64,000 bases of DNA, from the NCBI GenBank assembly GCA_028697145.1, contig JAQVFR010000003.1:3988-67987 (forward strand), written 5' to 3'. Both the position numbers and the translations under genes were made by a program. This stretch comes from Actinomycetota bacterium. GTDB lineage: Bacteria; Actinomycetota; Geothermincolia; Geothermincolales; RBG-13-55-18. The notes under the pieces were generated by a model, which ran no database searches, was not told where the DNA came from, and saw only the letters and a program-made list of their open reading frames with translations. Shown here piece by piece: positions 4,620-20,341 of this stretch; within the stretch, counting starts at the first letter, position 1, and every line of letters begins with the position of its first letter.

Positions 4620-4714
4620 GCGGATGCGCAGCACCTCCACTGATATAATCAAGACGTGTCCAGGCGCGGCGGTCACGCGGCCGCCGCGATACCATCGGGA
4701 TGAAAGGAGTTCGC

Positions 4715-5530
4715 ATGTTCGGACCGGGTGATCCCACGGCGATCATCGGCGAGAGGATAAATCCCACCGGACGCGCCAGGCTGGCCGAGGAGCTGCGCGA
4801 GGGGAAGTTGGACAAGGCGCTCTCCGACGCGGCCGCCCAGGCGCAGGCTGGAGCGGACTATATAGACGTCAACGTGGGCGCGCCCGGCGTGGACGAGACG
4901 GTTCTGCTGCCCCGCCTGGTTAAGGCGGTGGCGGAGGAAACGGGCCTGCCCGTGTGCGTCGACTCCGCCGATCCCGACGCCCTGGCCGCGGCCCTGGCCG
5001 TATACGGGGTGCCTGAAGCCATCGTCAACTCCGTCACCGCGGACGACGAGAGCATGGACGCCGTCCTGCCCCTGGTGGGCAAAGCGGGGTGTTACGTCAT
5101 CGCCATGACCAAGGACATGGGCGGTATACCCGCCACCGCGGAGGAGCGCCTGGCCCGGGCGGAGCGCATAGTCGAGCGCGCCTCGGCCCATAGCATCCCG
5201 CCCGGGCGCATCCTCGTGGACTGCCTTACCATCCCCGCCGCCACCGAAACCAACGCGGCCGCCGTGACCCTGCGCTCCATTTCCCTCATCCGCGAGATGC
5301 TGGGCTGCCCGGTGGTCCTGGGCGCCTCTAACATCAGCTTCGGCATGCCCGAGCGGGCGGTCATCAACTCCGCCTTCCTCTGCCTCGCCATAGAGGCGGG
5401 GATGTCGGCGGCCATCGTCAACCCACTGGAACCGGGCCTGGTCCTCTCCATGCGCGCCGCCGATTTCCTCCTGGGCAAGGACCGCATGGGGCGCGCTTAC
5501 CTGAAATACTACCGGGCCCACAAGGCGTGA
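4715..5530 (+). CDS. Pterin-binding methyltransferase (methyl-H4folate/H4MPT:corrinoid methyltransferase, AcsE/MtrH-like)
   Basis: IGERINPTG motif at the N-terminus and a DHPS-like TIM-barrel signature. The RBS GAAAGGAG sits 5 nt before the ATG at 4715 (the ORF-track start 4700 lies upstream in frame). A TATAAT box is at about 4645. Confidence 0.75.
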   Translation: MFGPGDPTAIIGERINPTGRARLAEELREGKLDKALSDAAAQAQAGADYIDVNVGAPGVDETVLLPRLVKAVAEETGLPVCVDSADPDALAAALAVYGVPEAIVNSVTADDESMDAVLPLVGKAGCYVIAMTKDMGGIPATAEERLARAERIVERASAHSIPPGRILVDCLTIPAATETNAAAVTLRSISLIREMLGCPVVLGASNISFGMPERAVINSAFLCLAIEAGMSAAIVNPLEPGLVLSMRAADFLLGKDRMGRAYLKYYRAHKA

Positions 5531-5543
5531 CAAGAGAGGCAGC

Positions 5544-7421
5544 ATGGAATACGACATAACCGTGCAGCCCGGCGGGACGCGGTTCACCTGTCCGAGCGAC
5601 GAGGACCTCCTCACCGCACTGCACGGAGCCGGTATAAACGTGGAGAGTGTTTGCGGGGGCATGGGCACCTGCGGCAAGTGCCGTGTCCGCATCCTGGAGG
5701 GAAAGGTGACGGACCCAACCCTCGAGGAGGAGGACCATCTCTCCGAAGAGCAGCTCGACGGGGGCGAGAGGCTGGCCTGCCAGGTCTTCCCGGAGAGCGA
5801 CCTGGTCATCGAGTTGCCCGATTCCTCCCTGGCAACGGGAGAGAGGCTCCAGCTCGCTTGCGAGCTGGAGGTCGGGGGATTCGATCCGGCCGTCCGCTTC
5901 CACGACCTCGAGGTGGAGATACCCGCCTCACCGGGCGACCACGGCTCCGACCTCCTGCGCCTGCGCGATGCCCTGGGGTCATCGCACCCGGGAGTACGGC
6001 TCGAGGGCGCTGACCTGGAGGGATTGCGCACGCTCCCTACCTTGCTGCGCGAGGAAGGAGGGAACGTACGGGCGGTGACCCGCGCCGGCAAGCTGCTCGG
6101 CCTTCTTCCGAGAGCGCGGAACCCCTTGGGGCTCGCGGTGGACCTGGGGAGCACCAAGGTCGCTCTCTTCCTCTGCGACCTCGCGGAAGGGCGCGTGCTC
6201 GCGAGTCATGGTTTCCTCAACCCCCAGATTCGGCACGGGGAGGACATCGTCACCCGCATACAGTACGCGATGGACAGGGATGCGGCCCGCCTGGGTCAGT
6301 TGGTGGTGGAGGCAATAAACGACAACCTGGACGTGATCAGCGCCGACGCTGGTCTCGGCCGTGAAGACATCTTCGAGATGGTGTTGGTGGGGAACACCGC
6401 CATGCACCACCTCTTCCTCGCGCTGCCGGTAACCCAGCTCGCCATGAGCCCCTACCTCCCGGCCACCGACCTTCCCCTGGAGGTCAAGGCCAGGGACCTG
6501 GGTCTGCAACTCAATCCCGCGGCCGTGGTCTACCTGCCGCCGCCCATCGCCGGCTACGTGGGTTCCGACCACCTGGCGGCGGTGGCCGCCGCGCGCCTTT
6601 GGGAACGTCCGGAACCTTGCCTGCTCCTGGACATCGGCACCAACACCGAGGTCGCCCTGCACGCCGGGGGACGCATGCGCACGTGCTCCTGTGCCTCCGG
6701 TCCCGCCTTCGAGGGTGGGGGCCTGAGCCAGGGGATGCGTGCCGGAGACGGGGCAATCGCCAGGGTATCCGTCGATCCCGCTGCGGGCGGGCTCCGGCTC
6801 TCGGTCATCGGGGACGCAACTGCGAAGGGGATCTGCGGTTCGGGCATCCTCTCGGCGCTCGCCGCCATGGTGGAGACGGGAGCCGTTGACACATCCGGCC
6901 GCATGCGGGAGGACGGTCCCGGTGTGGAACGCCGCGGCGAGGAACTCCTTTTTTACCTCGCCCCCCCGGACTCAGGCAATCCCGAAGGGGTTGCGATCAC
7001 CCAGAACGACGTCCGCGAGATACAGAAGGCGAAGGGCGCCATAAGGGCCGGCGTGGACGCCCTCCTTGCCGAGGCGGGCATAGGCCACGGGGACCTGAAG
7101 GAGGTCGTCCTCGCCGGTGCATTCGGCACCTTTATCGACCCTGCCGACGCCCTCGCCATAGCGCTGCTTCCGCCCGTCCCCACGGGCCTGGTCAACCAGG
7201 TGGGAAACGCCGCCGGAGCCGGTGCGCGTGGCATGCTCTTCTCCGCCGGCGCGCGCGCCGAGGCAGAGGAGGTCGCCCGACGCCTGGAATACCTGGAGCT
7301 TTCCGCCTACCCCGGGCTGAGCAAGCTCTTCGCGGCCGGCATGTACCTGTCGCAGGAGACGGTGCGCGGGGCCAAGGGCCGCTTCGGCCTCCAGGCTCCT
7401 CCGGCCTCAGGACCGGACTGA
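5544..7421 (+). CDS. RACo-like reductive activator of corrinoid proteins (N-terminal [2Fe-2S] ferredoxin plus ASKHA/DUF4445 ATPase domain)
   Basis: The N-terminus carries a plant-type ferredoxin motif C-x4-C-x2-C...C (CGGMGTCGKCRV...LACQ). The C-terminal 450 aa is an ASKHA-type fold (DLGSTKVALF..., IGTNTEV). The 625-aa length matches the RACo family. Confidence 0.8.
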   Translation: MEYDITVQPGGTRFTCPSDEDLLTALHGAGINVESVCGGMGTCGKCRVRILEGKVTDPTLEEEDHLSEEQLDGGERLACQVFPESDLVIELPDSSLATGERLQLACELEVGGFDPAVRFHDLEVEIPASPGDHGSDLLRLRDALGSSHPGVRLEGADLEGLRTLPTLLREEGGNVRAVTRAGKLLGLLPRARNPLGLAVDLGSTKVALFLCDLAEGRVLASHGFLNPQIRHGEDIVTRIQYAMDRDAARLGQLVVEAINDNLDVISADAGLGREDIFEMVLVGNTAMHHLFLALPVTQLAMSPYLPATDLPLEVKARDLGLQLNPAAVVYLPPPIAGYVGSDHLAAVAAARLWERPEPCLLLDIGTNTEVALHAGGRMRTCSCASGPAFEGGGLSQGMRAGDGAIARVSVDPAAGGLRLSVIGDATAKGICGSGILSALAAMVETGAVDTSGRMREDGPGVERRGEELLFYLAPPDSGNPEGVAITQNDVREIQKAKGAIRAGVDALLAEAGIGHGDLKEVVLAGAFGTFIDPADALAIALLPPVPTGLVNQVGNAAGAGARGMLFSAGARAEAEEVARRLEYLELSAYPGLSKLFAAGMYLSQETVRGAKGRFGLQAPPASGPD

Positions 7422-7429
7422 TCAGGGCT

Positions 7430-8662
7430 TCATTCGCCGACGATGGCTTCGCCTGCCACCAAGGCCAGGAAGTCGTTGGAGCCGTCCTCGATCATGCCCG
7501 CGCGGGCGTCGCGGAAGAGCTTCTCTATGGCCGATTCCTTGGAAAGCCCGAATCCTCCCATGAGCTGCACCGCCTCACTGGCCACCTCGAAGGCGGCCTG
7601 GGTGCAGAAGATCTTGGAGGCGATGGAGTACTGCGTGAAGGGCGGATTGGTGTTGAAGTTGAACTCCACGACCGCACGGGAGAATGCCCGGCAGGCCTCC
7701 ACCTGCTTGAACATATGGAAGAGCTTGTAGCGCACCAGCTGGTGCTCTATGAGCTTCTTCCCGCCCTGCACCCGCTGCTTGCAATAGGCCAGCGCCTCCT
7801 CGTAACAGGCGCGCGCCACGCCGGTGAAAAATGCCCCCATGCAGGCGTTGGCAGTGCTGACGGTGATGTCGAGGATGGCCTCGTAGCTCTCTTCGTCGAT
7901 GATCATGTACTCCTTGGGCACCCTCACGTTGTCGAAATAGATCTCGCCCTGGTTCAGAGCGCGCTGGCCCAGTTTGTCCCATGGTTTGCCACGGGTCACG
8001 CCGGGCAGGTCAAGCGGGATGACGCAGATGCCGCCGCCGGCCATGCCCATTTCCGGCTCGATGGTGAGATAGGCGCACGCGTGGGTGGCGATGGTGCCGT
8101 TGGAGACCCAGGCGGCCTTGGTGCCGTTGATGACGTAGTCGTCCCCGTCCAGGGTGGCGCGGCAGGCGGTCCTGGCGATCTCCGGGTCGGAGAACTGTTC
8201 GGTGAAAGGCCCAAGAGTATCGGAGCCGTGGTCGGGCTCGGTGATGGCCCAGCAGCCGATGATCTTGGCCTCCTCGTCCTCGCAGAAGGGTATGATGATG
8301 TTATCGATGAGGAACTCGGTGGGCACCATGCTGGCGATGAAGGCCGGGAAACAGGCCACGCCGAAGGCGATCATGAAATCGACGCTCCCCCAGGATATCT
8401 CCTCGAAGAGCATGTGTACCTCCAGGGGCGAAAAGCCTCCTCCGCCGTAGATCTCCGGCAGGAGTATCTTGTGCATGCCTATCTTGTAGCCCTTCCTGAG
8501 CACGTCCCAGTAGATGTCCTCCCTGGCGATGACGTCCTCGGGCGTCAACTTGTCCAGCTCCAGGCTGGCGGGGCGCAGCACCTCTGCAGCGAAGGTGTGC
8601 ACCATATCCCGGTTCATCCTCTGCACCTTGGTGAGGCCTAGGTTGAGGTCAACATAACCCAC
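7430..8662 (-). CDS. Acyl-CoA dehydrogenase family protein
   Basis: ACAD-like middle and C-terminal domains (GCWAITEPDHGSD, GGFG..E..IEKLFRDAR). The ORF extends to 8731; a GTG at 8662 preceded by AAGGGGGA is the preferred start but is uncertain. Confidence 0.75.
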   Translation of the reverse strand: MGYVDLNLGLTKVQRMNRDMVHTFAAEVLRPASLELDKLTPEDVIAREDIYWDVLRKGYKIGMHKILLPEIYGGGGFSPLEVHMLFEEISWGSVDFMIAFGVACFPAFIASMVPTEFLIDNIIIPFCEDEEAKIIGCWAITEPDHGSDTLGPFTEQFSDPEIARTACRATLDGDDYVINGTKAAWVSNGTIATHACAYLTIEPEMGMAGGGICVIPLDLPGVTRGKPWDKLGQRALNQGEIYFDNVRVPKEYMIIDEESYEAILDITVSTANACMGAFFTGVARACYEEALAYCKQRVQGGKKLIEHQLVRYKLFHMFKQVEACRAFSRAVVEFNFNTNPPFTQYSIASKIFCTQAAFEVASEAVQLMGGFGLSKESAIEKLFRDARAGMIEDGSNDFLALVAGEAIVGE

Positions 8663-8802
8663 GACGGTATCCCCCTTTTTTCGGTGCCAGGTCTCGGTTA
8701 ACGAGTTACCTGGCAATGATTCCCATACCATTCGGTTCTTTACGTACCCCGGAACAGCCCCTGTATACTTCCGGGATTAACAACGAACAAGACCTGACCC
8801 AC

Positions 8803-10416
8803 TTACGAGTAGTCCTCCAACTTAAACACGTTATCGGCGCCTTCTGAGAACTCGTCCTTGAGCACGCGGTCGAGATGCTTCTCCGAAGCGCTCTTGGGGA
8901 TCTCGTTCACCACTTGGATGTAAGAGGGCACCGAGTTCGGCTCCAGCCCGTCCTTCGCCGTCTGGAACACCGAGGCGGGATCTATGGCCTTGCCCTCGAA
9001 GGGCGCGACCGCAGCGACCAGGTCGCTCTCGCCCGGCGCCCCCGAGGCGGCGGGTATGCCGTAGACGCAGACCTCGGAGATGTCGGGGTGCTCGCCGATG
9101 ACCTTCTCCACGTAGGTGGGGATGATGAAGTCCCCCGCCCGCCTCAGGCCGCCGCCCTCCTTGCGGTAGTCGAAGTACAACCACCCCTCCTCGTCCTTGT
9201 GCACCATGTCGCCGGTGCGCAACCAGCCCCCGCGGGTCTTGTCCTGCGAGTCCTTCTCCCTGCCGTAGTACTCCACCTCGGGCTTGACGTTCACGGCCCG
9301 CATGAGCAGCTCGCCGGTGACCCCGGGCGACACCTCGTTGTCGTTCTCGTCCACGACGATGGCCTCCTGTATGCCCTCCAGGGGCTTGCCGAAAGAGCCG
9401 ATGGGCCCCACGCCGATGGGATTGTAGGCGAAGCCGCCCTCCACCGCCCCGTACCACTCCAGGATCTTAACCCCGAACCTCTTCTCGAAGGGCTCCCAGA
9501 TGGGCGCGGGAGTGCCGGCGCTGATGACCACCTCCACGGGATTGTCGGCATCGTCGGGCTTGGGAGGCTCGTTGTAGATGCCCGCCATCATCCCGCCCAG
9601 CAGGGAGAAAGTGGTGCATCCGTACTTGCGGCAGATGTCCCAGATGCGGCTCTTGGTAAAACGCTGGCTGATCACCCCCAGTATGCCCATGGACAGCGCG
9701 GGCAGCAGGCTGATGGCCAGGGCGTTGCCGTGGGTGAGGGACAGGCCGGTGTAGATGACCGTCTCCGGCGTGTACTTCCAGATGAGGGTGGGGGCCAGTT
9801 GCGCGAACATGGCGGTGCGGGTGGACTTGATCACCACCCCCTTGGGATTGCCCGTCACCCCCGAGGTATAAATGATGGCCATGGGCAGGTTGGGGTCGTC
9901 TATCCTCCCCTCCACCTCGAAGACGTCCGGCCCGGCCAGTATCTCGTTTATGGTGGGGTACTTTTTCGCGAGGTCGGGGTCGGCGTCCGGCTTGAGGTTG
10001 AGCCAGATCCTCTCGATCCCCGGTATGTTTTTAACCACGCTCTCCACCTCGGGAAGGAGGTCGGCGGTGGTGATGATCCCCTTCGCCTTGCAGTCCTGCA
10101 GCATATACCCGAGCTTCTCCCCCTTGGTGCGCGGGTCGATGGGCACCGCGATCATCCCCAGCAGCGTGGCGGCACCCGTGGTGAAGACGGACTCGGGGTG
10201 GTTGCGCATAAGGGTGGCCACCGCGTCGCCCTTGCGGAGGCCGAATTCTCTGTACGCCCTGGCCATCTTGAAGGTACTGGCGGCTATCTCCCTGTAAGTA
10301 AGGGGTTCATCCGGATAGAGGCCGCCGTTCTCGAAGATCAGCCCCACCTTGTCCGGGTTCTCCTCCAGCCTCATCTCGATCATGTTGGACATCAACGCCG
10401 GGTTCTTCTCTCCCAT
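8803..10416 (-). CDS. AMP-dependent synthetase/ligase (acyl-CoA synthetase)
   Basis: AMP-binding motif YTSGVTGNPKGV plus TGD...DGW. The ATG at 10416 has the RBS GAAAGG 9 nt upstream. The ORF-track start at 10425 is a GTG directly abutting that RBS, so the ATG is more likely. Confidence 0.85.
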   Translation of the reverse strand: MGEKNPALMSNMIEMRLEENPDKVGLIFENGGLYPDEPLTYREIAASTFKMARAYREFGLRKGDAVATLMRNHPESVFTTGAATLLGMIAVPIDPRTKGEKLGYMLQDCKAKGIITTADLLPEVESVVKNIPGIERIWLNLKPDADPDLAKKYPTINEILAGPDVFEVEGRIDDPNLPMAIIYTSGVTGNPKGVVIKSTRTAMFAQLAPTLIWKYTPETVIYTGLSLTHGNALAISLLPALSMGILGVISQRFTKSRIWDICRKYGCTTFSLLGGMMAGIYNEPPKPDDADNPVEVVISAGTPAPIWEPFEKRFGVKILEWYGAVEGGFAYNPIGVGPIGSFGKPLEGIQEAIVVDENDNEVSPGVTGELLMRAVNVKPEVEYYGREKDSQDKTRGGWLRTGDMVHKDEEGWLYFDYRKEGGGLRRAGDFIIPTYVEKVIGEHPDISEVCVYGIPAASGAPGESDLVAAVAPFEGKAIDPASVFQTAKDGLEPNSVPSYIQVVNEIPKSASEKHLDRVLKDEFSEGADNVFKLEDYS

Positions 10417-10454
10417 GCATATCACCCTTTCAATGCGTCATGCGGCTTCCGCCC

Positions 10455-11096
10455 TCATTCCACCGCGCCCATGAAGCGCCGCGTGAAGGAGGGGAACTCC
10501 TCTGCGAACTTCTCCGCCCATTCCTCCTTCGTCCAGTACTTGTGGCGGTCGAAGAAGGGGTTGCGGACCTGGCAGCTCACTGCCACGCCGATGCAGAAAT
10601 CTACGTCCTCGATGAACTCGCATGCCGGGGCGGCCGCCCCGATGGTCTGAAAGACACGGCAGTGCAGCCCCATGTAATGGGCCACGGCCGCAGCCGCGTT
10701 GGCGGCCATGTGCACGTCGTAGACGACGAAATGGCAGCAGGGGCCGTTGATGATCGACTCCACGTCCTCCGCCTTGTTCAGCTCCTCGCAGGTAGCGAAG
10801 CCGCAGGCGCCGCAGTCGTAGTTATAGACGGACTTGCGCCTGGCCCCCAGGAGCAGGGCGCGCGTGTCCTGCTGCGCCAGGTCCACGAAGGCGCGGCCGT
10901 CGCGATTGAAGAGGGGCGAGACCTCGGCCACTCCCTCGCAGTAGCCAGACAGGTCGTCGAACTCCTCGGGCCCGATGGCCGATATCCTGATCTTGGGATG
11001 ACCGAACTTGAGCGCGGTGTTCGCCGCCACCGCCATGAGTTCCAGCGCCCGGTCGATGCCGCTCGCGAGGAGATCGTCACCGTTGATGATAGCCAT
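10455..11096 (-). CDS. Cys-rich ferredoxin-like protein (DUF2148-like, C-x2-C-G-x3-C), paralogue 1
   Basis: 213 aa containing YDCGACGFATCEE, GPCCHFVVYD and an additional AAAPAC Cys. The ATG at 11096 follows a GGGGGGG RBS. It is tightly stacked after its paralogue (stop TAG at about 11112). Confidence 0.55.
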   Translation of the reverse strand: MAIINGDDLLASGIDRALELMAVAANTALKFGHPKIRISAIGPEEFDDLSGYCEGVAEVSPLFNRDGRAFVDLAQQDTRALLLGARRKSVYNYDCGACGFATCEELNKAEDVESIINGPCCHFVVYDVHMAANAAAAVAHYMGLHCRVFQTIGAAAPACEFIEDVDFCIGVAVSCQVRNPFFDRHKYWTKEEWAEKFAEEFPSFTRRFMGAVE

Positions 11097-11111
11097 ATCT
11101 CTCACCCCCCC

Positions 11112-11783
11112 CTAGCAGTAGATGGACCGGAAGGTCGGGAATAGCCGGTGTATGAGGCGGTTCTGCAGGGTCTCGTCGTTGTATTCCGCCCACTCTCTGG
11201 GCAGGTCTGCGAAGGGGCTCTTCTCCGTCACCGCGGCGAGGAAGCCCAGGGCGATGTCGCACTTGTAGGGCAGCAGCCCCATCCTCAGGGCGGCGGCCCC
11301 CACCGACATCTTGATGGCATGGTCGATACCCAGCTGGCGCGCCAGGGTCACGGCTCCGTTCAGGGCATAGGCCATGTTCATGGAGCGCAGCAGGCAGAAC
11401 GGGCCGCGGAAAGCGACCGACGGCGCGTCCGGCACCCTCTCGGCGTCACGCCACATGTCACAGAGCAGGTGCCCGCAGAGGTTGCAGTTGGAGTCCATGG
11501 GATCGTGGCTCGAGCGGCGGTCGGCCATGATCATGACCACGTCCGAGTCGCGCACCTGCACCGCGTCGGAGCGGAAAAATTCCCAGCGCGGGTTGTCGGC
11601 GGCCATCCTGTCGATGGCGATAGCCAAATCCTCTATCTCGTCCCTGGAATCCAGGACGTGGATGCTTATCTCGTCCACCCCGCCCACGCGGGGCGAGGTC
11701 GTCGCCGAGGCCAGGAGGAGCTTGCAGGCAAGCCTGACGCTTTCCTCCCTCCTTTCCTCGTACTCCCTCATCTTTCTTTCCAT
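11112..11783 (-). CDS. Cys-rich ferredoxin-like protein (DUF2148-like), paralogue 2
   Basis: Carries SNCNLCGHLLCDMW, the same C-x2-C-G-x3-C spacing as paralogue 1. The ATG at 11783 follows a GGGAGGGGG RBS. Confidence 0.5.
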   Translation of the reverse strand: MERKMREYEERREESVRLACKLLLASATTSPRVGGVDEISIHVLDSRDEIEDLAIAIDRMAADNPRWEFFRSDAVQVRDSDVVMIMADRRSSHDPMDSNCNLCGHLLCDMWRDAERVPDAPSVAFRGPFCLLRSMNMAYALNGAVTLARQLGIDHAIKMSVGAAALRMGLLPYKCDIALGFLAAVTEKSPFADLPREWAEYNDETLQNRLIHRLFPTFRSIYC

Positions 11784-11867
11784 GATGGGACCCCCTCCCT
11801 GCAAAGGAAACTCTTACGAAAACCTCCGGCATGCGCCTTTCCGCATCGCCGTCTCCCGGCAATAAGG

Positions 11868-12269
11868 CTACATGGGAAGGCCGTATTCCTCGCAGATAGC
11901 TGGGTAGGCCTCGTATGCCGGCTTGAGCAAGGGGAGCATGCCGAGGATCTTGGCCATGGGACCCTTGGCCTTGACCTTCCTCTTGGCCAGGGCCACGGGC
12001 AGCTTCAGGTTCTGCAGCCAGAAATTATGGCAGTCGTCGCCGGCCAGCCACATGATCACGTCGCCCTCGGCGTCGGTGGCTCCCACGGCCAGCCCCGGCT
12101 TGTCCGTGCCGTGCAGCAGCCAGATCTCTCCATCGGGGTCGTTGATGACGAACTGTACATTGATGTTCTCGTCGTTGAACTTCTGGCTGACGCTTTCGTT
12201 TTCGAGCAGTTTCGTGAAGAGCTTGCCAAGGACCTCGTACATGAACTCAGTGTCCTTGAATACCGGCAT
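11868..12269 (-). CDS. SCP2 sterol-carrier/lipid-transfer domain protein
   Basis: 133 aa beginning MPVFKDTEFMYEVLGKLF...WLLHGTDKPG...GDDCHNFWLQNLKLPVALAKRKVKAKGPMAKILGM, which fits the SCP2 fold consensus. The RBS AAAGGGG sits 9 nt upstream of the ATG at 12269. The ORF-track N-terminal extension is R/P-rich and judged non-coding. Confidence 0.7.
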   Translation of the reverse strand: MPVFKDTEFMYEVLGKLFTKLLENESVSQKFNDENINVQFVINDPDGEIWLLHGTDKPGLAVGATDAEGDVIMWLAGDDCHNFWLQNLKLPVALAKRKVKAKGPMAKILGMLPLLKPAYEAYPAICEEYGLPM

Positions 12270-12330: not shown

Positions 12331-12355
12331 ATACCCAAGTATGATACCAAGGTAT
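12331..12355. promoter_or_regulatory. Operator-like double palindrome, site 1, between the divergent SCP2 operon and tetR
   Basis: Sequence ATACCCAAGTATGATACCAAGGTAT, made of two adjacent 12-mers of the ATACC-NN-GGTAT type. It is 22/25 identical to the site at 17427. A TTGACA hexamer lies at about 12314. Confidence 0.6.
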
Positions 12356-12537
12356 CTAATGCGGTGCCCCTCGTCAAGTGGAATAGTCTTGTATTTTCCG
12401 CGAACGGGGGGGCGGCGGACAAACGCCCGGGGAGCGTAGCGGGCGCGCGGCATCCGCGCAGGTTGTTCGCGCTCCCGGGGCGTGGTAGATTCTGTTGTAG
12501 CGACATGATCGCTTTGAATCGGGCAACGGGGGACAAC

Positions 12538-13146
12538 ATGGCGAAGAAGCGGACTGCGCCCAGGACGGAGAAAGGCATAAACACGCGGCAGGCGATTTTC
12601 GATACCGCCATCGCCCTGTTCGCGAAGCGGGGCTATGACAAGGTCACCATCGACGACATCTGCGACAAGGTCGGGGTCACCAAGGGCGCCTTCTACAACT
12701 ATTTCGAGTCCAAGGACCAGATCATCCTGGAGGAGTTCATGCGCATGGACGATCACTACGTCAAGGTCGCGCATGACATAGCGGACTTAAAGAGCAGCGC
12801 GGAGAAACTGCGCGTGTTCAACCGCGAAGCGGTCAAGCTCATGGCCGACCTCGGAGTCACCATGATGAAGGTGGTCTATCACTCCCAGATCGCTCCGAAC
12901 ATGCGCAGACCCTATCTCATGGACGGCAGGCGCTCCCTCTATAAGATCACGAACGAGCTTATAAAGGAGGGCCAGGAGAAGGGAGAGATCCGCGACGACA
13001 TCGCCAGCGAGGAGATGGCGGTCATGCTCATCAACTGCTTCCGCGGCCAGATCTATCACTGGTGCCTGGCAAACGGCTCCTTCGACCTGGTGGGCACCTG
13101 CGACACGCTTTTCGACCTCATAATGGATCGCCTCACGCCGCGCTAG
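12538..13146 (+). CDS. TetR/AcrR-family transcriptional regulator
   Basis: N-terminal helix-turn-helix AIFDTAIALFAKRGYDKVTIDDICDKVGVTKGAFYNYF. The first ATG after the divergent intergenic region is at 12538. Confidence 0.85.
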   Translation: MAKKRTAPRTEKGINTRQAIFDTAIALFAKRGYDKVTIDDICDKVGVTKGAFYNYFESKDQIILEEFMRMDDHYVKVAHDIADLKSSAEKLRVFNREAVKLMADLGVTMMKVVYHSQIAPNMRRPYLMDGRRSLYKITNELIKEGQEKGEIRDDIASEEMAVMLINCFRGQIYHWCLANGSFDLVGTCDTLFDLIMDRLTPR

Positions 13147-13308
13147 ACGCGTCGTCCGGCCTCGAGGCGGCTTATGCGGTGACCCCGCGATCGTCTCTGC
13201 AGCCCGCTTCGGCGCTCGATGCTCCATGCGGTTAAAGTGGCGGCTCTACCGTGTCGATTAATACCAGAGCAAGCGATAACTTATATTCTGGACAGGGGAG
13301 TCTGCAAC

Positions 13309-14358
13309 ATGAAGCGCTGTTCCGCATGCGGTGTTCCCAGAAAGATAACGTCCACCCACAGATGGCTGGATAACGGCACCATGGTGGAGACGAACAATCC
13401 CGATCACCGTATGATCTTCATAGAAAGCGACAACATAGGCGGCGTCTTCACGCGCATCGAGGAAATCCTCGGCCTCCCCATCGAGCACCTCGTCATCGAG
13501 AGCCAGCGCAGGATGACCTACGATTACGTCCGCAGCCTCATGCCGTCCATGGTGCTGAAGTTATTCCGCATGACCTCCATCAGGCCTCTGGCGAAAAGCG
13601 TGACCGAGCTGGGGAGACTCGTAGGCCTGGGAGACGTGGAACTTCTCTCTATGCGCATCAAGGGAGACGAGGGGGACTACGTGAAGCTGGGAGGGAGAAA
13701 CCTCTTCTACATACCTGCCTATTGCGGCATGGTGGTCGGCTCCATGGAGGCGCTGTCCGGACAGGAATGCAGCATCAGCTACGAGGAGACCTCGCCGGGT
13801 TACTACGAGGTGACCACGTCTGTCACGACCCACCCCGTGGAGCTGAAGGAGAGGTTCAAGCCACGGGAGTATTCGCGCAAAGAAGGGGACCTGCGCTTGC
13901 CGCGGTGCTCCCGCTGTGGGGGGCCGTCGGCGCTCGCGGGCTACGATTTCCTCTACGACGAGGGCATCATCCTGCACCGGGCGAACGCACGGCGCATGCT
14001 CTTCGACGGCCCCGCGGAGTTCGAGGCCATCTTCTCCGAGCTGGAGAAGGAGCTGGGCGAGGATATTCCGCAGGTGATAATCGAAGCTCAGAAGCTCTTC
14101 GTCAAGAGCGGATTCTACGACCTCGGCGAGATCATGGACACCGATGCCTTCAGGGAACACCTGGCGCTGCGCGGTCTTGGCAACCTGAGGGACATGGAGT
14201 ACGGAGAGGACCACCTGCGCCTGCGCATCGAGAACCCGTGCCTTCACCTGCTCCTCGCCGGCCTGGCCCAGGGAGTATTCGAGCTCGCGAGCGACCGCGA
14301 GGCCCGGGTTGCCTGGGAGCTGGCGGGAGACGGCGACCTGACCGTAGAGGCATCCTAG
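13309..14358 (+). CDS. Hypothetical protein with an internally duplicated CxxCG-headed domain (paralogue of 37380..38465)
   Basis: Begins MKRCSACGVPRK...; a second repeat starts at LPRCSRCGGP... Each repeat has a conserved ...ARRMLF.G...FEAI...LGE...VIIEAQ core. The RBS AGGGGAG sits 9 nt upstream. No confident family recall. Confidence 0.6.
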   Translation: MKRCSACGVPRKITSTHRWLDNGTMVETNNPDHRMIFIESDNIGGVFTRIEEILGLPIEHLVIESQRRMTYDYVRSLMPSMVLKLFRMTSIRPLAKSVTELGRLVGLGDVELLSMRIKGDEGDYVKLGGRNLFYIPAYCGMVVGSMEALSGQECSISYEETSPGYYEVTTSVTTHPVELKERFKPREYSRKEGDLRLPRCSRCGGPSALAGYDFLYDEGIILHRANARRMLFDGPAEFEAIFSELEKELGEDIPQVIIEAQKLFVKSGFYDLGEIMDTDAFREHLALRGLGNLRDMEYGEDHLRLRIENPCLHLLLAGLAQGVFELASDREARVAWELAGDGDLTVEAS

Positions 14359-14598
14359 GTACGCCGTCGACCTCCGCACTGCTTGGACCGTTGTCGGCGA
14401 CCGCATTCCGCCGATCCTTTTTACCGCGTCATTAGTATTCGACCGATGTGCCCGTGATCATGCGGACCATGCCCAGCATGGAGCAGGCGGCCAGGGCAAC
14501 AACGGCTTAAGCAGAATGTTCACCCGCGGGTTCTTCGCCTCGAGGCTTTCTACCAGGCCTATTCTCACAACCTCCCTCGAGACCGGGACCGCGAGGGC

Positions 14599-15597
14599 TC
14601 AGGGCATCTCCGTCCAGACCTTGCCGCCCTTGCGCCAGGTGATGGGCGGTAATTCCCTCTCCACCATGGTGTCCGCGTTCACGCGCGGGTAGCCCAGGAC
14701 GATGGCCGAAGCCACCTTGTAGGGCCACTTTATCCCCAGCTCCCTCTTGAGCCAGGGAAGGAAATTGATGCCGATGCTGAACGACAGCCAGCAGGTGACC
14801 AGCCCCAGGGAGTGGGCGGCCAGGACCATGTTGGTGCCGCAGATGCCAACGTCAATCCCCGGGTCGTTCATCCCCCGCTTGTCCATGAGGATCAGGATCA
14901 GGCACGGGGCCCCCAGGAAAACGTCTTTCGGCTTGAGGATGGCCGTGCCTCCCGATATGCCCCTCTGATCCATCAACCCGGGAGCCAACGCGCATAAGAG
15001 GCTGAGTATCCTCCTCGTCAGGGGATTGGTCTTGCCCGTCCAGTAGAAATTGGTGAGCAGCCTCCAGAAGGGGTCCATCTTCTCCGCGATATAGTCCATC
15101 TCCGCCCGGTCATTGATCACGATAAAGGCCCAGGGCTGGCAGTTGCCGTGGGAGGGGGCGAAGCGTCCGGCTTCGACCACGCGGCGCACAAGCACGTCCG
15201 GCACGGGGTCCTTGGAGTAGATGCGGTTGCTGCGGCGTTTGTAGATTACCTCCTCGACCGGCGTCAGCCCCTCGATACCCTCCACCTCCGGTATTTTCGG
15301 GTAACCGTCATCACCATGGTAGGACATGGTCCTGAAGATGCCTTCCTCCACGTTGTAGAAGCCCCGCATGCCGACTGCGCCCTTCTCACAGTGGGAGATA
15401 CAGGCGGAACAGGAAAAACATACCTTCCCATCGATCAGCCGCGCCTTCTTGTCCACGATCTCCAGGCAGCCCATGGCGCAGGCCTTGACGCAGTTCCCGC
15501 AGCCCGTACACTTCTCGGCGTCGATGATGATTTCCGAGAGCGACCACGCCTCCGGGTGAGCGGGCAAGTAAGCCTTCTTGAACTTTGCAGACGCCAT
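14599..15597 (-). CDS. Two-[4Fe-4S] ferredoxin domain fused to a nitroreductase-family domain
   Basis: CTGCGNCVKAC and CFSCSACISHC cluster motifs are followed by a nitroreductase-like fold (RRSNRIY..., HGNCQPW). The ATG at 15597 follows AAGGGGGA; an alternative ATG is at 15612. Confidence 0.75.
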   Translation of the reverse strand: MASAKFKKAYLPAHPEAWSLSEIIIDAEKCTGCGNCVKACAMGCLEIVDKKARLIDGKVCFSCSACISHCEKGAVGMRGFYNVEEGIFRTMSYHGDDGYPKIPEVEGIEGLTPVEEVIYKRRSNRIYSKDPVPDVLVRRVVEAGRFAPSHGNCQPWAFIVINDRAEMDYIAEKMDPFWRLLTNFYWTGKTNPLTRRILSLLCALAPGLMDQRGISGGTAILKPKDVFLGAPCLILILMDKRGMNDPGIDVGICGTNMVLAAHSLGLVTCWLSFSIGINFLPWLKRELGIKWPYKVASAIVLGYPRVNADTMVERELPPITWRKGGKVWTEMP

Positions 15598-15790
15598 CGT
15601 TTCCCCCTTCATCTCATACCTTTTACCATACGTACGCGTGCCAGGCCTGCACTCGCTGCACTCCGTTCAGGTGACTGGCACCGCCGCCTTCGGCGCTGTC
15701 GCTTCCGCGATGCATCCTGTCGAAACCTTTTTCATGCCTCGCGCCCCCCAGCCCGATAACTATGGGGTCGGTCGCCGCGAGTCCGCGAGC

Positions 15791-16077
15791 GGGACCGTTA
15801 CCCCAAGGTTCGGGCCAACCGAAGCCTTCCGTCTGCTGGACCGCCGCCAGCACGGCGGGCAAGGTGCTCGGAGGAGCTTGCGACGACGACCATCCTTGCC
15901 GCCGGGCTCCTGCGGAAGCGGGACCGTTGCCCCAAGGCTCGGGCCAACCGAAGCCTTCCGTCTGCTGGACCGCCGCCAGCACGGCGGGCAAGGTGCTCGG
16001 AGGAGCTTGCGACGACGACCATCCTTGCCGCCGGGCTCCTGCGGAAGCGGGACCGTTGCCCCAAGGCTCGGGCCAAA
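15791..16077. repeat. 129-bp tandem direct repeat, about 2.2 copies, intergenic
   Basis: The unit gggaccgtt(g/a)ccccaagg(c/t)tcgggccaaccgaagccttccgtctgctggaccgccgccagcacggcgggcaaggtgctcggaggagcttgcgacgacgaccatccttgccgccgggctcctgcggaagc starts at about 15791, 15920 and 16049. Copies are near-identical. All six frames give R/P/G-rich low-complexity translations. Confidence 0.85.
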
Positions 16078-16078
16078 A

Positions 16079-17338
16079 TCAACCCACGCGCTCCAATATA
16101 TGGATGCACATGGCCGCTTCGCCGGTGCCAATGAAGCCACCGCCGTTCTCTGACATGGCTATCCTCGCCCCCTCCACCTGGCGCTTGCCGGCCTCGCCCC
16201 GCAACTGCGTCACCAGCTCGACCAGTTGGGCGATACCAGAGGCCCCGATGGGATGTCCACGGCATTCCAGCCCTCCCGAGGTGTTGACGGGGAGCTTGCC
16301 CCCCAGCTTGGTGGCACCGGACTCCGCGAAGGGGCCGCCCTCTCCCTCTCCGCAGAAACCCAGTTCCTCGCACTGCAACAGCTCGCCGAAGGCGGTGGCG
16401 TCGTGCACCTCGGCCATGTCGATGTCCTCGGGGCCCACGCCGGCCACCTCGTATGCCTTCCTGCTCAGGCGTTCCCCGATGAGGTCCATGTCGCCTCCCT
16501 CGGGGATGGCGCCTCCGGTGAGCACCGATGCAAGGATCTTCACCGGACGCGCGCCGGTGAAACGCTTCAAGGCCTTCCCCGAGCAGAGTATCGCCGCCGT
16601 GGCCCCGTCCCCCATGGGCGCGCACATGGCGCGGGTGAGGGGGTAAGCCACCGGCCGGTCATTGAGGACCTCCTCGAGGGTCATATCCATCTGGTACTGG
16701 GCCAGGGGGTTCAGGGATGAATGGTAATGGTTCTTGGCGGCGATTATCGCCAGTTGCCGCTGCGTGGTGCCGTATTTCTCCATGTGCATCCGCGCCGCCG
16801 CGGCATAGAGGTCCATGAAGGGAGAGCGGGCGCCCTCGCCCCCTCCCTTCTTGCCCCCTCCCGTCGCCTCGGCCTCGGCCGCCTTCTTCTTCTCGTCCTC
16901 CATGAAAGCGGCAAGCACGACACGGATGAACTCCACGTCCGCGTTGGACATGAACATCTCGAACATGGCCTGCTTGTTGTCCGGGTTGAACATCTTCTCC
17001 ACCCCGATGGCCAGCGCCACGTCGTAAGCGCCCGCCCTGATGCCGAGGTAGGCGCCGTTCACGGCGCTGGTCGCCCCGGCGCAGGCGTTCTCTACGTTCA
17101 TGGTCGGGATGCCCTCGATGCCAAGCGGGACCAGCGCCACCTGGCCGCGTATGGAATGCTGGCCGGTGACTATCCCCCAGAAGGAATTGGAGAACCACGC
17201 CGCCTCAATATCCTTCTTCTGGACCGGGCAGTCCGCCAGCAGGTTGTCGATGACCTCCGCGGTCATCTGCTTGATGCTCTTCTCCGGGTACTTGCCGAAG
17301 CGGAACATCCCCACGCCGATGATATAGACGTCCTCCAT
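16079..17338 (-). CDS. SCP-x/nonspecific lipid-transfer-protein-type thiolase (thiolase-like superfamily)
   Basis: Begins MEDVYIIGVGMFRFGKY...; has NVENACAGATSA with an active-site Cys, and a C-terminal GGLECRGHPIGASG. The RBS AGGAGG sits 6 nt upstream of the ATG at 17338. Confidence 0.8.
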   Translation of the reverse strand: MEDVYIIGVGMFRFGKYPEKSIKQMTAEVIDNLLADCPVQKKDIEAAWFSNSFWGIVTGQHSIRGQVALVPLGIEGIPTMNVENACAGATSAVNGAYLGIRAGAYDVALAIGVEKMFNPDNKQAMFEMFMSNADVEFIRVVLAAFMEDEKKKAAEAEATGGGKKGGGEGARSPFMDLYAAAARMHMEKYGTTQRQLAIIAAKNHYHSSLNPLAQYQMDMTLEEVLNDRPVAYPLTRAMCAPMGDGATAAILCSGKALKRFTGARPVKILASVLTGGAIPEGGDMDLIGERLSRKAYEVAGVGPEDIDMAEVHDATAFGELLQCEELGFCGEGEGGPFAESGATKLGGKLPVNTSGGLECRGHPIGASGIAQLVELVTQLRGEAGKRQVEGARIAMSENGGGFIGTGEAAMCIHILERVG

Positions 17339-17426
17339 CCCTGCCTCCTTTGTTAAGACTTCGACGTCGCACAGACAGAACAGGCGCCTCAGCAGCACTA
17401 TGCGATCGCCAACCGCAGACAGTTTA

Positions 17427-17451
17427 CATACCCTGGTATGATACCATGGTA
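17427..17451. promoter_or_regulatory. Operator-like double palindrome, site 2, about 90 bp upstream of the thiolase start
   Basis: Sequence ATACCCTGGTATGATACCATGGTAT; its second 12-mer is a perfect palindrome. TTTACA is immediately upstream. Confidence 0.6.
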
Positions 17452-17474
17452 TTTTAATCCCCCGGCAGCGTCAA

Positions 17475-18539
17475 TTACGGCTGCCAGCCTTCCTCGGAGG
17501 CCTCTAGCAGGCGCAGCAAGGCCTCCTGGCTCGTGGTGGGATACATCTGACAATACTTGGCATCTCGCATAAGGCGTTCCATGCCATAGTCGCGCATGTA
17601 ACCGTAGCCACCGTGAATCTGTACACCGTCGATGGCCGACTTGCACGCGCTCTCCGTGCAGCGCAGCCAGGCCACCACGGCTGGCGCGATCCCGCCGTCC
17701 TCGCAGGCCCTCTTGACCAGGGTTCTCCCCTGCTCCACCGCCGCGAGCATCTCGGCCAGGAATATGCGCATCTGCTGGTGCTCTACGATCATCTTCCCCG
17801 CCTGATACCTCTCGCTCGCGTAGGCATAGGCCTTGTGCAGCGCGCTGCGCGAAATCCCGTTGGCTATGGACGCCAGGCCCAGCAGCATCACCCTTTCCAC
17901 CGCCCCTGCCATGTCCCCCCCGGAGATGATGTTGGAAGGCTCGGCGCCGTCGAGACGGACCGACCCGGCCCGGGCAGCCCTCAGCCCCATCTGATACGCC
18001 TCGGGTGTCGTCTCCACGCCGCGAGTGTCGCCGCGCACCGTGAGGGCTTGCGTCCCCCCCGAGCCAGCCGGGATCAGGGTGATGAAGGAGCATTCCTGGA
18101 CGTTGAAGGCGAAGGGCACCCGTCCCTGCACCCTCCCCCCCGAGAACGAAACATCGCCGGGGAAGGCGAGACATGCGGGATAATCGTCGGGGCTCACGCC
18201 GGTGATCAGCGCCTCGGGCTCGCCCATGGCCGACGGCAGCAGGGCGGTATTATGCGCCAGCAGGGAGGCGGCGACTCCCGCCTCCTCCACCGCTATCTCC
18301 TCCAGGGCGACACAGAAGGCGTATTCGTCCAGGCCCCCTCCCCCGCATTCCTCGGGGATGAGGGCCGCCAGCATTCCAATGTCACCCGCTTTGGCGATGA
18401 CCTCCCTGACCCGCCCCCGGGTCGGCTCCAGGTCGAGTTGCTCCGCCTGCTGCGAGAGTTCTTTTTGCGCGAAGGCCGCTGCGGTCTCTCGCAGTATCCT
18501 GTACTCCTGGTCCTCGTGAAATTCCGGCAGCCTGATCAT
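17475..18539 (-). CDS. Acyl-CoA dehydrogenase family protein, short form (354 aa), candidate beta-type subunit
   Basis: Has the ACAD C-terminal helical domain (IHGGYGYMRDYGMERLMRDAK). Its ATG overlaps the upstream TAG (TAGATG), indicating translational coupling to 18540..20015. Confidence 0.7.
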   Translation of the reverse strand: MIRLPEFHEDQEYRILRETAAAFAQKELSQQAEQLDLEPTRGRVREVIAKAGDIGMLAALIPEECGGGGLDEYAFCVALEEIAVEEAGVAASLLAHNTALLPSAMGEPEALITGVSPDDYPACLAFPGDVSFSGGRVQGRVPFAFNVQECSFITLIPAGSGGTQALTVRGDTRGVETTPEAYQMGLRAARAGSVRLDGAEPSNIISGGDMAGAVERVMLLGLASIANGISRSALHKAYAYASERYQAGKMIVEHQQMRIFLAEMLAAVEQGRTLVKRACEDGGIAPAVVAWLRCTESACKSAIDGVQIHGGYGYMRDYGMERLMRDAKYCQMYPTTSQEALLRLLEASEEGWQP

Positions 18540-20015
18540 CTATCTCACCCCTTTCTTGAAGGGACCGGGGATCTCCACCTGCAGCGACTGAGCTATCTCG
18601 GTGTTGTAGACCACCAGACGGTTCAGCTGGTTGGTGCCCTCGTAGATCTGGGTCAGCTTGGCGTCACGGTAGGCCTTCTCGACCCAGGGCCTCTGCGGTG
18701 AATCGTCCGCCCCCATGACCTCCAGCGCCCGCGAAGTCAGAGCCATGGCGTTGTCCGCGCACGTGAACTTGGCCAGGGACGCCTTGGCCAGCATGTCCGT
18801 AACGTCCTCGTCCTTTATGAAGTAGCGGAAGAGCGCGTTGACGAGAGCCTTGCCGTAATAGGAGTTGAGGAAAGCCGAGTAGGGCTTCGATGTGCGTATT
18901 GTCCGCGGAATGAGGAAGGTCGAGAGGAAGATGGGATGGGTGAAGGCGCCGCGGAAGACGGCGTCGCCGCCAAAGCTGTGATTCAGGAAGAGTCCGCGGT
19001 TCTCCTGTATGCTCCCCAGCATATCCGCCAGGGTCATCCTTATGCGGTCCTCGTCTATGGGACGCTTGCCGTTGCGTTTCTCCCTGGTCCAGGCCAGGAA
19101 ATGCTCGAAGGCGCCGCGCGCGATTCCGGTGGCGATGGCCCCCACCGGCCCCCGGGAGGCGGCCATGATGATGAGGATGCCGTTGGCCATGCCGTCCCCC
19201 TCGTAACCGAGCACGTGCGAGTCCGGCACGAAGACGTCCTCGAAGAGCAGTTCGGCCGCGTGGCAGGCCCTTTGCCCCATCTTGAGCTCCACCCTCGGCG
19301 TGGAAAATCCCTCCATATCCCTCTCCACCAGGAAGGTGGTCCAGGTCTGCAGGGGCCGGCTGCGGTCCGTGGCCGCGGTGACCGTGAAATACTTTGCCTC
19401 GCTGCCGCCGGAGATGAAGCACTTTCGGCCGTTGAGGAGGTAGCCTCCCTTGACCTTTTTCGCCTCCATGCCGATCTTGCCCACCTCGAGGAACTCAGGC
19501 TCCTCCACGTCCGTCCCTGCCGACGGCTCGGTGATGCCGTAGGCCATGACCACCGGGTTGCCCTTCTTTTCCTCCTCCACTATCTCATGCAGGACGGTGT
19601 CCCAGTGGGCCATGGCGCCCGAGGCGATGACCGGCGCCACTCCGAGGGAGTGCGCCGCGAGCGCAAGCCCGATGCCGCCGCATGCCGAGCTCAGTTCCTC
19701 GACCGCAAGGGCCATGCCGGTGATCATGTACTTCTCGGCCAAACCCCCCAGCACCTTGGGGATGGCAAGCGAGAAGATGTTGTATCTGCAGGCCTCCCTC
19801 ATCGTTTCCCAGTCGAAGTAATCCGGTTCCCGCTCCATGCGCTGGTCAAGCTGAAGAGCCCGTGGCAGCGCCACCTCCCGTTTGTACTCTGCGCAGCCCT
19901 CGACGATCCCGAGTATCTCGTCGATCCCCTTGCGGTCATGTTCGCGCAAGGCCGCCAGCGCCGGGAAATCGAGGAGAACCTTCTTCCCTCTCTCGCTCAC
20001 CCCTTTAGCGGTCAT
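18540..20015 (-). CDS. Acyl-CoA dehydrogenase family protein (491 aa)
   Basis: Carries AYGITEPSAGTD and a C-terminal YEGTNQLNRLVV ACAD signature. Confidence 0.8.
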   Translation of the reverse strand: MTAKGVSERGKKVLLDFPALAALREHDRKGIDEILGIVEGCAEYKREVALPRALQLDQRMEREPDYFDWETMREACRYNIFSLAIPKVLGGLAEKYMITGMALAVEELSSACGGIGLALAAHSLGVAPVIASGAMAHWDTVLHEIVEEEKKGNPVVMAYGITEPSAGTDVEEPEFLEVGKIGMEAKKVKGGYLLNGRKCFISGGSEAKYFTVTAATDRSRPLQTWTTFLVERDMEGFSTPRVELKMGQRACHAAELLFEDVFVPDSHVLGYEGDGMANGILIIMAASRGPVGAIATGIARGAFEHFLAWTREKRNGKRPIDEDRIRMTLADMLGSIQENRGLFLNHSFGGDAVFRGAFTHPIFLSTFLIPRTIRTSKPYSAFLNSYYGKALVNALFRYFIKDEDVTDMLAKASLAKFTCADNAMALTSRALEVMGADDSPQRPWVEKAYRDAKLTQIYEGTNQLNRLVVYNTEIAQSLQVEIPGPFKKGVR

Positions 20016-20299
20016 ACCTTCCCCCCTTCTCGCATCTCCACGACAGGCACAGCGCTGCGGGTACCCTGCGGATAAGCCAAGACGGCCGTCAAATCATTCC
20101 GGAACGACCTGATGTTTCCGTCACCAGGCGATCGCCGATTCCAAGGGGCTTTCCGCACCCGCACCTGAGACGAAGAAACAGCCTGATCGCACAGGATCAG
20201 GTATCGGGCTTGCGACCAGCCATATGCATGCAGCCAAGACAAAGGTATTGTAAACCATTAATCACTACTGAACAAAGCCATTCGGCTTGTATAGGAATA

Positions 20300-20325
20300 G
20301 AGGCAGGCCCGGTTTGGCCTGCCTC
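20300..20325 (-). terminator. Stem-loop downstream of the enolase-fusion gene (intrinsic-terminator-like)
   Basis: Perfect 10-bp stem gaggcaggcc/ggcctgcctc with a 6-nt loop. On the minus strand it is followed by a U-containing tract (UAUUCCUAUA). Confidence 0.4.
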
Positions 20326-20341
20326 GTACTGGAAGTCTTCC

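Follow-up and report, generated by a model that had tools for sequence, protein, structure and literature searches.

Paired 12-bp palindromes as probable operators of a TetR-family repressor at two catabolic promoters of an uncultured actinomycetotal lineage

The DNA analysed here, referred to as the window, is a stretch of 64,000 nucleotides from an Actinomycetota bacterium (assembly GCA_028697145.1, contig JAQVFR010000003.1, positions 3,988 to 67,987 of the forward strand), in which the gene of a TetR-family regulator lies among genes for CoA-dependent catabolism. Two near-identical 25-bp sequences, O1 and O2, are probably the operators of this adjacent TetR-family repressor, which would thereby control the promoters of an operon starting with an SCP2-like gene and of a thiolase gene. 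They have been retained at these promoters in about 20 related genomes. Binding by TetR, repression, stoichiometry and the nature of the inducer are inferred. The proposed circuit is well supported but ordinary, being a local repressor-operator pair in a textbook arrangement. The elements concerned are:

12331-12355, gene strand minus: operator O1 (ATACCCAAGTATGATACCAAGGTAT), in the divergent SCP2/tetR intergenic region, weight-matrix score 42.5 bits
17428-17452, gene strand minus: operator O2 (ATACCCTGGTATGATACCATGGTAT), in front of the thiolase gene, weight-matrix score 46.4 bits
12538-13146, plus strand: TetR-family regulator of 202 residues, divergent from the SCP2 operon, putative repressor acting on O1 and O2

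Two sites and the putative promoters they overlap

On the gene strand O1 reads ATACCTTGGTAT-C-ATACTTGGGTAT and O2 reads ATACCATGGTAT-C-ATACCAGGGTAT, each consisting of two 12-bp palindromic units with a period of 13 bp. The two sites are identical at 22 of 25 positions. This identity had been given in a preliminary description of the sequence, as had the position and sequence of O1; its sequence of O2 was also correct, the site itself lying one base to the right of the interval 17427..17451 reported there. An exact ATACC-NN-GGTAT palindrome had been ascribed to every 12-mer and is found in three of the four, the first 12-mer of O1 ending in AGTAT. O1 overlaps the SCP2-operon promoter and is common to the divergent tetR gene, while O2 overlaps an internal promoter before the thiolase gene and is located 86 bp upstream of the thiolase start codon (ATG at 17341), in agreement with the earlier estimate of about 90 bp.

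Both strands of the window were searched with the 25-mer pattern, allowing up to three mismatches, and O1 and O2 were the only matches (0.00 expected, from 100 dinucleotide shuffles). Likewise, the four units of O1 and O2 are the only occurrences in the window of the 12-mer with at most one mismatch (0.54 expected). A weight matrix derived from orthologous sites gave the scores listed above, the next best site in the window reaching 8.3 bits and the highest-scoring shuffle 11.8 bits. This matrix scan of the window found no further site above the shuffle ceiling upstream of the acyl-CoA dehydrogenase (ACAD) pair, the ACAD gene of the SCP2 operon (ACAD1), the nitroreductase gene, the gene for a 379-residue protein or the FAD oxidoreductase gene. 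The weaker half-sites that had been noted near 13270 and 15630 did not hold up: they are lone ATACC pentamers scoring below 9 bits with a 12-mer matrix, which is not above noise, and the window contains 123 instances of this pentamer (ATACC/GGTAT), or about 1.9 per kb.

The same putative promoter architecture is present at both sites on the gene strand, i.e. TTGACG, 16 nt, and then the motif:

12372-12377, minus strand: TTGACG, putative -35 hexamer for the SCP2 operon, with O1 following after 16 nt
12349-12354, minus strand: TACCTT (TAnnnT type), putative -10 hexamer for the SCP2 operon, within the first O1 unit and separated from the -35 by 17 bp
17469-17474, minus strand: TTGACG, putative -35 hexamer for the thiolase gene, directly adjoining the ACAD stop codon upstream of it (17475-17477)
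17446-17451, minus strand: TACCAT, putative -10 hexamer for the thiolase gene, within the first O2 unit and separated from the -35 by 17 bp

Since the motif starts 16 nt after TTGACG in both cases, its TACC(T/A)T can be read as a TAnnnT-type -10 hexamer at 17-bp spacing, and each operator begins 1 nt before this hexamer. TAnnnT is the actinobacterial -10 consensus. A promoter scan returned the TTGACG-17-TACCAT promoter at O2. Downstream of O2, the thiolase leader contains a weak terminator-like hairpin with a 5-bp stem (17384-17398, minus strand).

Conservation of the motif and its association with the TetR gene

Nine loci around TetR orthologues were retrieved for comparison (these and further loci are designated L001 and so on). 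The orthologues span a range from 100% to about 45% identity and are mostly from metagenome-assembled genomes (MAGs) of uncultured Actinomycetota, the named relatives belonging to Candidatus Solincola of the class Geothermincolia. The motif was found upstream of the SCP2 gene, between the short ACAD gene and the thiolase gene, or before tetR in L001/2, L003, L004, L006 and, in decayed form, L005. O1 is kept at the same place in L001, L003, L006, L027, L029, L042 and L048, and O2 is kept between the short ACAD and thiolase genes in 11 non-redundant relatives. TetR is the only regulator that consistently adjoins the motif across loci.

For a phylogenetic footprint, promoters of thiolase and SCP2 genes were taken from relatives whose TetR is 71-100% identical, and 19 non-redundant ones were aligned on the motif. 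Columns 1-25 of the motif carry 1.0-2.0 bits, except for column 19, and 13 of them are invariant; the -35 columns (-21 to -16) carry 0.7-1.5 bits. Short flanks are also conserved (TAG upstream and GTnA downstream), and spacer and leader columns mostly remain below 0.5 bits. The earlier proposal of a common operator through which the neighbouring TetR would control two operons is thus strongly supported at the level of sequence comparison, by a footprint in 19 promoters and by the co-occurrence of regulator and operator.

This pattern of conservation also bears on the question whether the palindromes could act as RNA, in the form of a 5'-leader hairpin or attenuator. The 25-mer, if fully transcribed, indeed folds into a hairpin in minimum free energy structures. 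However, the leaders fold no better than their shuffles (z = 0.23 and -0.57), no Rfam match was found at the operators, and what is conserved is the identity of bases, as in the 13 invariant columns, and not pairing with covariation. Moreover, the predicted -10 lies in the first unit, so that a transcript would start inside the motif. A role as RNA is therefore highly improbable.

To see how widely the motif occurs, a slightly relaxed pattern, ATACYNNRGTANNATACCNNRGTAT, was scanned against one genome per species for 185,579 species. The scan yielded 40 stretches, as compared to about 35 chance matches expected from a naive estimate based on base counts. Nine related Actinomycetota MAGs, each with 1-3 sites, account for 15 of these stretches, and all 15 are located upstream of SCP2, tetR or thiolase within the tetR gene cluster. 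The other 25 stretches fit the naive chance estimate, and in 23 of them a profile of the family to which this TetR belongs found no member. In the remaining two the motif lies at most 200 bp upstream of the gene of such a member: a Desulfatibacillum MAG (L044; TetR 41% identical), with tetR divergent from a CoA ligase gene, and a Gemmiger MAG (L038; TetR 27.5% identical), with tetR divergent from a flavoprotein reductase gene, the motif being directly upstream in both. More distant relatives of the regulator also have the motif nearby, as three phased units are found between tetR and thiolase in L009 (TetR 45% identical) and a double unit 142 bp upstream of the TetR gene in L058 (34%). A metagenome search with the TetR alignment supplied the gradient loci L050, L051, L052, L058 and L077; among the matches listed, three exceeded 60% identity, close orthologues were few, and most were distant relatives. 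No earlier description of this regulon was found in literature searches on the motif strings, DUF2148 and Solincola.

A high frequency throughout the genome had been named beforehand as the sign of a repeat, and this was not seen. A low-copy repeat, or what is left of a mobile element, without any function in regulation would account for a repeated sequence with inverted symmetry. However, the 64 kb of the window contain only two copies and related MAGs 1-3 each, which always occupy the same promoter positions beside the same genes; the flanks are not conserved, and no transposase or target-site duplication is present. As the motif is rare, found at promoters and tied to the TetR gene, we regard it as an operator, and the repeat explanation as the most improbable of those considered.

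A more serious alternative is that the motif is itself a promoter or activator element, for instance one recognized by an alternative sigma factor, since it always overlaps the predicted -10 and its promoter-proximal unit (ATACCATGGTAT) is the more strictly conserved one. Tandem palindromes would, however, be unusual for sigma-factor recognition, and the link of the motif to a TetR gene extends across phyla. The triple array of L009 has one unit between the -35 and the -10. In L005, the palindrome has decayed, but a TTGACC -35 and a TAACAT -10 persist, which indicates that promoter and operator are separable. In addition, the -35/-10 register at dedicated tetR operators (see below) differs from that at the target promoters, indicating that the motif is not a promoter element as such. 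Taken together, these observations make the promoter or activator explanation unlikely.

Finally, the sites could be bound by another regulator, encoded elsewhere, such as a CsoR-like protein. For the CsoR-like TTHA1953 of Thermus the consensus is TACNNTACNNNNGTANNGTA, with a TAC-N4-GTA core, and the 12-mer ATACCTTGGTAT, which is one unit of O1, is part of the probe used for TTHA1953. This 20-bp consensus, on the other hand, requires TAC repeats 5 bp apart, which the 25-mer does not have. No gene of this kind is located nearby, and a TetR orthologue is the only regulator common to motif-bearing loci. Binding by such a regulator is very unlikely, and operator function for the adjacent TetR is the explanation adopted in what follows.

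It had also been suggested that the TetR regulates its own gene. For relatives this is well founded: in L001, L011, L027, L029, L048 and L050, where tetR is located apart from the SCP2 promoter, the gene has its own operator over a TTGC(A/G)T-17-TAGTAT promoter, and these dedicated copies suggest that tetR is under operator control in the lineage. For the window the case is less certain. The shared operator is 182 nt away from the tetR start codon, no consistently conserved -35 was found for a tetR-strand promoter over the shared operator, and the only conserved feature on that strand is a TATGAT in the operator centre, which in the window is preceded by a TTGACA at a poor spacing of 19 bp. 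Autoregulation in the window is considered plausible. A second candidate tetR promoter, TTGTTC-17-TAGATT, is present outside the operator at about 12464-12492, and shares GTGGTAGATT with the tetR leader of L005. In L005 the surroundings of tetR lack an operator but include a copy of the RNA motif described below.

Proposed mechanism and comparison with known TetR-family repressors

In the mechanism that we propose, each operator consists of two 12-bp palindromic units (ATACCnnGGTAT) 13 bp apart, and the bound repressor would cover about -13 to +12, thereby keeping RNA polymerase off two minus-strand promoters. The first would be that of the SCP2/DUF2148/DUF2148/acyl-CoA ligase/ACAD operon, and the second the internal promoter before the thiolase gene, transcription from which would probably reach the ferredoxin-nitroreductase gene. 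The stoichiometry would most likely be one dimer per 12-mer, i.e. two dimers per operator, positioned on different faces of the helix. The inducer would most likely be a CoA thioester made by the co-regulated ligase; an acyl-CoA is our best guess, because the targets encode a ligase, ACADs and a thiolase.

The protein has a TetR_N domain (PF00440, residues 20-65, E = 7.5e-17), and matches TetR_C_24 and TetR_C_4 in Pfam as well. The match to the YsiA-like TetR_C_4 (PF08359) is weak (26.9 bits versus a cut-off of 21; E = 6e-6), and TetR_C_24 scores higher. The AlphaFold2 model has nine helices and a mean confidence score (pLDDT) of 86.9. Foldseek matched it with a probability of 1.0 to many TetR-family structures, the best TM-scores being with structures of the acyl-CoA-binding FadR/YsiA proteins, i.e. 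those from B. subtilis (1vi0, 3whc), B. halodurans (5gp9, 5gpc) and T. thermophilus (3ang). TM-scores with these range from 0.67 to 0.82 (0.77/0.82 with 1vi0), at a sequence identity of about 20%.

The best sequence match in the PDB is MbdR (4uds; E = 5e-13), followed by FadR/YsiA proteins. MbdR, a repressor from Azoarcus sp. CIB that has been footprinted, has an 18-bp operator, ATAC-N10-GTAT, which overlaps the -10, -35 or +1. Its four target promoters belong to a single anaerobic CoA-dependent cluster; one is its own and another is internal to an operon, and the first CoA thioester of the pathway releases the protein (PMC4424350). The present system resembles that of MbdR in the ATAC/GTAT arms of the palindrome, the location of the operator over a promoter, the presence of an operon-internal promoter and the CoA-dependent catabolic targets. 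In contrast to the single N10 operator of MbdR, the units found here are of the type ATACC-N2-GGTAT (ATAC-N4-GTAT) in a 13-bp tandem, and no ATAC-N10-GTAT is present in the 25-mer of O1 or O2. Furthermore, the two proteins are only distantly related, and no genes for reductases of the benzoyl-CoA type are found here.

Common features with FadR/YsiA are the TetR_C_4 domain and target genes for an acyl-CoA ligase, an ACAD and a thiolase. In B. halodurans FadR, one operator is bound by two dimers without contact between the dimers, through two 16-bp sites that overlap with an offset of about 4 bp (PMC5397183). The FadR box GATGAATGAATACTCATTCAT, however, is unrelated to ATACCnnGGTAT, and the 12-mers described here are adjacent, 13 bp apart, and do not overlap.

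The QacR operator is one long inverted repeat, and each of its halves, not palindromic by itself, is bound by one dimer. The operators described here resemble this "pair of dimers" mode, which is cited in PMC4424350 (ref. 58) and PMC5397183 (ref. 18), in being long (about 25-28 bp) and in covering a promoter or +1, with two dimers proposed, but they differ in that each unit is palindromic by itself and can stand alone or occur three times. KstR and KstR2 are TetR repressors of CoA-dependent lipid and steroid catabolic genes, including ACAD pairs and SCP-x-type thiolases. Their motifs, TnnAACnnGTTnnA for KstR and AnCAAGnnCTTGnT for KstR2, do not resemble ATACCnnGGTAT. Identity with KstR/KstR2, as suggested by the JGI label of some orthologues, was rejected, since the motif is unrelated and KstR2 (E = 1.5e-9) is outranked by many other TetR proteins.

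The number of units per site varies between loci. Double units are the usual case, including L058, and the triple site is that of L009; in the arrays of relatives the period is always 13 bp. Single 12-mers were found upstream of the ACAD1 orthologue in L001 and L003 and, in L003, upstream of a gene for an AI-2E-family transporter (L001, positions 4195-4206; L003, 6360-6371 and 3545-3556), as well as in L077, where each unit lies inside a longer palindrome, TTAACATAC-N4-GTATGTTAA. The sites upstream of the ACAD1 orthologue and the transporter gene share the context GGGGTCAGGTCTTG-N7/8-ATACCnnGGTATGTAA, and upstream of ACAD1 in the window (8732-8802) GGGTCAGGTCTTGTT is retained and the palindrome is lost. 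This modularity of one, two or three units favours one dimer per 12-mer and two per operator in the window. Two TetR dimers side by side, as had been envisaged in the preliminary description, are plausible in view of these arrays and by analogy with the B. halodurans FadR precedent (PMC5397183).

Several points weigh against the reading of the motif as the operator of this TetR, or restrict what it may cover. The -35 and -10 assignments are putative, being matches to consensus sequences and not mapped promoters, and the SCP2-operon promoter, which has the weaker -10, was not returned by the promoter scan. The likeness of the TetR model to FadR-type structures is generic to the fold, and does not identify the ligand. 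The model of one dimer per unit, which we consider the most likely one, is drawn from the modular arrays and from analogy. At the TetR loci L007 (58% identity) and L008 (49%) no motif was found, either with as many as 5 mismatches allowed or with a score threshold of 14.5 bits, suggesting that operator specificity has drifted in some branches (L007 has only a loosely similar GGTA-N7-TACC). Lastly, the species scan took near-exact matches, and weaker members of the regulon elsewhere would be missed.

A more far-reaching interpretation, which we put forward with considerable doubt, is that the operators of this TetR subfamily follow a modular grammar without a described precedent in the family, together with a layer of control at the RNA level, in an undescribed anaerobic CoA-dependent pathway. 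If this were true, the 12-bp palindrome ATACCnnGGTAT with TTA/TAA flanks would be arrayed one to three times with a 13-bp period, a chain of dimers would spiral round the promoter, and the number of units would set the strength of repression. One pathway (SCP2, DUF2148, ferredoxin-nitroreductase) would then be controlled both at transcription and, through the covarying intercistronic RNA motif that comes after each stop codon of the thiolase operon, at the RNA level in Actinomycetota of the Wood-Ljungdahl type.

Proposed target operons, neighbouring genes and an intercistronic RNA motif

The genes that would be controlled from O1 and O2, and the ACAD pair upstream of O2, are listed below, with family assignments from Pfam where indicated.

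11868-12269, minus strand: SCP2-like protein, first gene of target operon 1 (7430-12269) (Pfam)
11112-11804, minus strand: DUF2148 protein, target operon 1 (Pfam)
10455-11105, minus strand: DUF2148 protein, target operon 1 (Pfam)
8803-10425, minus strand: AMP-dependent acyl-CoA ligase, target operon 1 (Pfam)
7430-8731, minus strand: ACAD (ACAD1), target operon 1 (Pfam)
16079-17341, minus strand: SCP-x-type thiolase, first gene of target operon 2 (Pfam Thiolase_C_1, E = 2.7e-42, and Thiolase_N)
14599-15612, minus strand: 4Fe-4S ferredoxin-nitroreductase fusion (Pfam), probable distal gene of target operon 2
18540-20015, minus strand: ACAD of 491 residues, upstream of O2
17475-18539, minus strand: short ACAD of 354 residues without the middle domain, upstream of O2

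The content of the first operon agrees with the earlier assignment of SCP2, two Cys-rich proteins (DUF2148), an acyl-CoA ligase and an ACAD, and its gene order is also found in L001, L003, L006, L027, L042 and L048. For the second operon, the thiolase gene had been proposed together with, possibly, the ACAD pair and the nitroreductase gene. The nitroreductase gene is probably the distal gene of this operon, as it is on the same strand and follows thiolase in relatives, and no terminator-like site was found on the minus strand between the two genes. The ACAD pair, in contrast, would not be driven by the O2 promoter, because it is located upstream of O2 on the same strand, with its stop codon abutting the -35; no operator motif of its own was found upstream of it (20016-20341). 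Read-through from the promoter of the ACAD pair would have to cross O2, and only in the rearranged relative L004 is the pair found downstream of an operator.

The putative operator would join two operons into one functional module in an uncultured lineage without genetics, and in rearranged relatives the module also takes in a ligase, an ACAD pair and a nitroreductase. Its members include proteins without a known role, namely the two DUF2148 proteins, the SCP2-like protein and, in relatives, a protein of about 318 residues without a Pfam match. The motif therefore offers a handle on a CoA-dependent catabolic pathway, and the repressor-operator pair is a candidate biosensor for its substrate in a heterologous host.

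Some features of the surrounding DNA may be mentioned here. Directly downstream of the thiolase stop codon there is a 129-bp tandem repeat (15788-16076; 2.2 copies, 98% identical) that is private to the window, except that a 55-bp piece matches L049. It sits where relatives carry the gene of the 318-residue protein, which by tblastn is absent from the window. Downstream of tetR, an open reading frame at 13219-14358 encodes a protein of 379 residues with two CxxC pairs and no Pfam match; its real start is probably at 13309, which would give 349 residues. This gene is kept beside tetR in several relatives, with tandem duplicates in L010 and L048. Corrinoid-methyltransferase genes consistently flank the cluster, both in the window (3489-7421) and in the relatives L003-L006; these include genes for a pterin-binding MtrH-like protein and a RACo-type reductive activator, to which L005 adds B12-binding and URO-D-like genes. 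No operator was found among these flanking genes.

While the ATACC pentamer near 15630 was examined, the leader of the nitroreductase gene proved to be conserved; a structured RNA motif was noticed in it, and this motif recurs within the cluster. It is a less expected item than the operator circuit. Its copies include those at:

Window 15629-15717, minus strand: 41.3 bits with covariance model R1, E about 5e-8
L001 14148-14243 and 15343-15438
L010 3445-3540, 4613-4728 and 5871-5961
L005 9725-9820, 14226-14326, 15421-15521 and 19827-19922

The copy in the window would be part of the transcript controlled from O2 and is not a TetR site. The covariance model R1, with a four-helix structure, was built from four copies of 96 nt; an alignment with MAFFT and RNAalifold had mis-registered the inner helices, and the covariance model resolved their register. 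The motif is about 96-130 nt long and consists of P1 (UCGC-GNAA-GCGA), the long hairpin P2, and P3 (GUGCCAG/CUGGCAC), which encloses a variable P4. It contains a GNRA hairpin, two covarying helices, and the conserved single-stranded elements AUGCA, CGG and CACGYGUACGU. R1 identified 20 significant copies in 12 sources, one of them in the window. No match with E of 1 or below was found among the 4227 covariance models of Rfam for the motif in the window, L001, L005 and L010.

Covariation among these copies is strong. In their alignment, 90.9% of cells are paired, versus 30-42% with partners slid by 1-3 columns. Changes on both sides occur in 15 pairs, whereas sliding gave 3-6 such pairs and shuffling 6.6±1.4, none of 500 shuffles reaching 15; the alignment was fitted to R1, and these counts accordingly lean towards the structure. 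Clean switches between pairs include CG:9/UA:9 and UA:9/GC:5.

Eighteen of the 20 copies are sense-oriented in intercistronic gaps of the operon made up of the thiolase gene, the gene of the 318-residue protein, the nitroreductase gene and a second ligase gene. The distance from the motif to the next start codon is variable (16-218 nt). Of 11 copies measured, 10 begin 13-23 nt downstream of a stop codon; the copy in the window is the exception, at 361 nt, because the gene of the 318-residue protein is missing there. This anchoring to stop codons suggests an intercistronic element for processing, stability or translational coupling more than a classical riboswitch.

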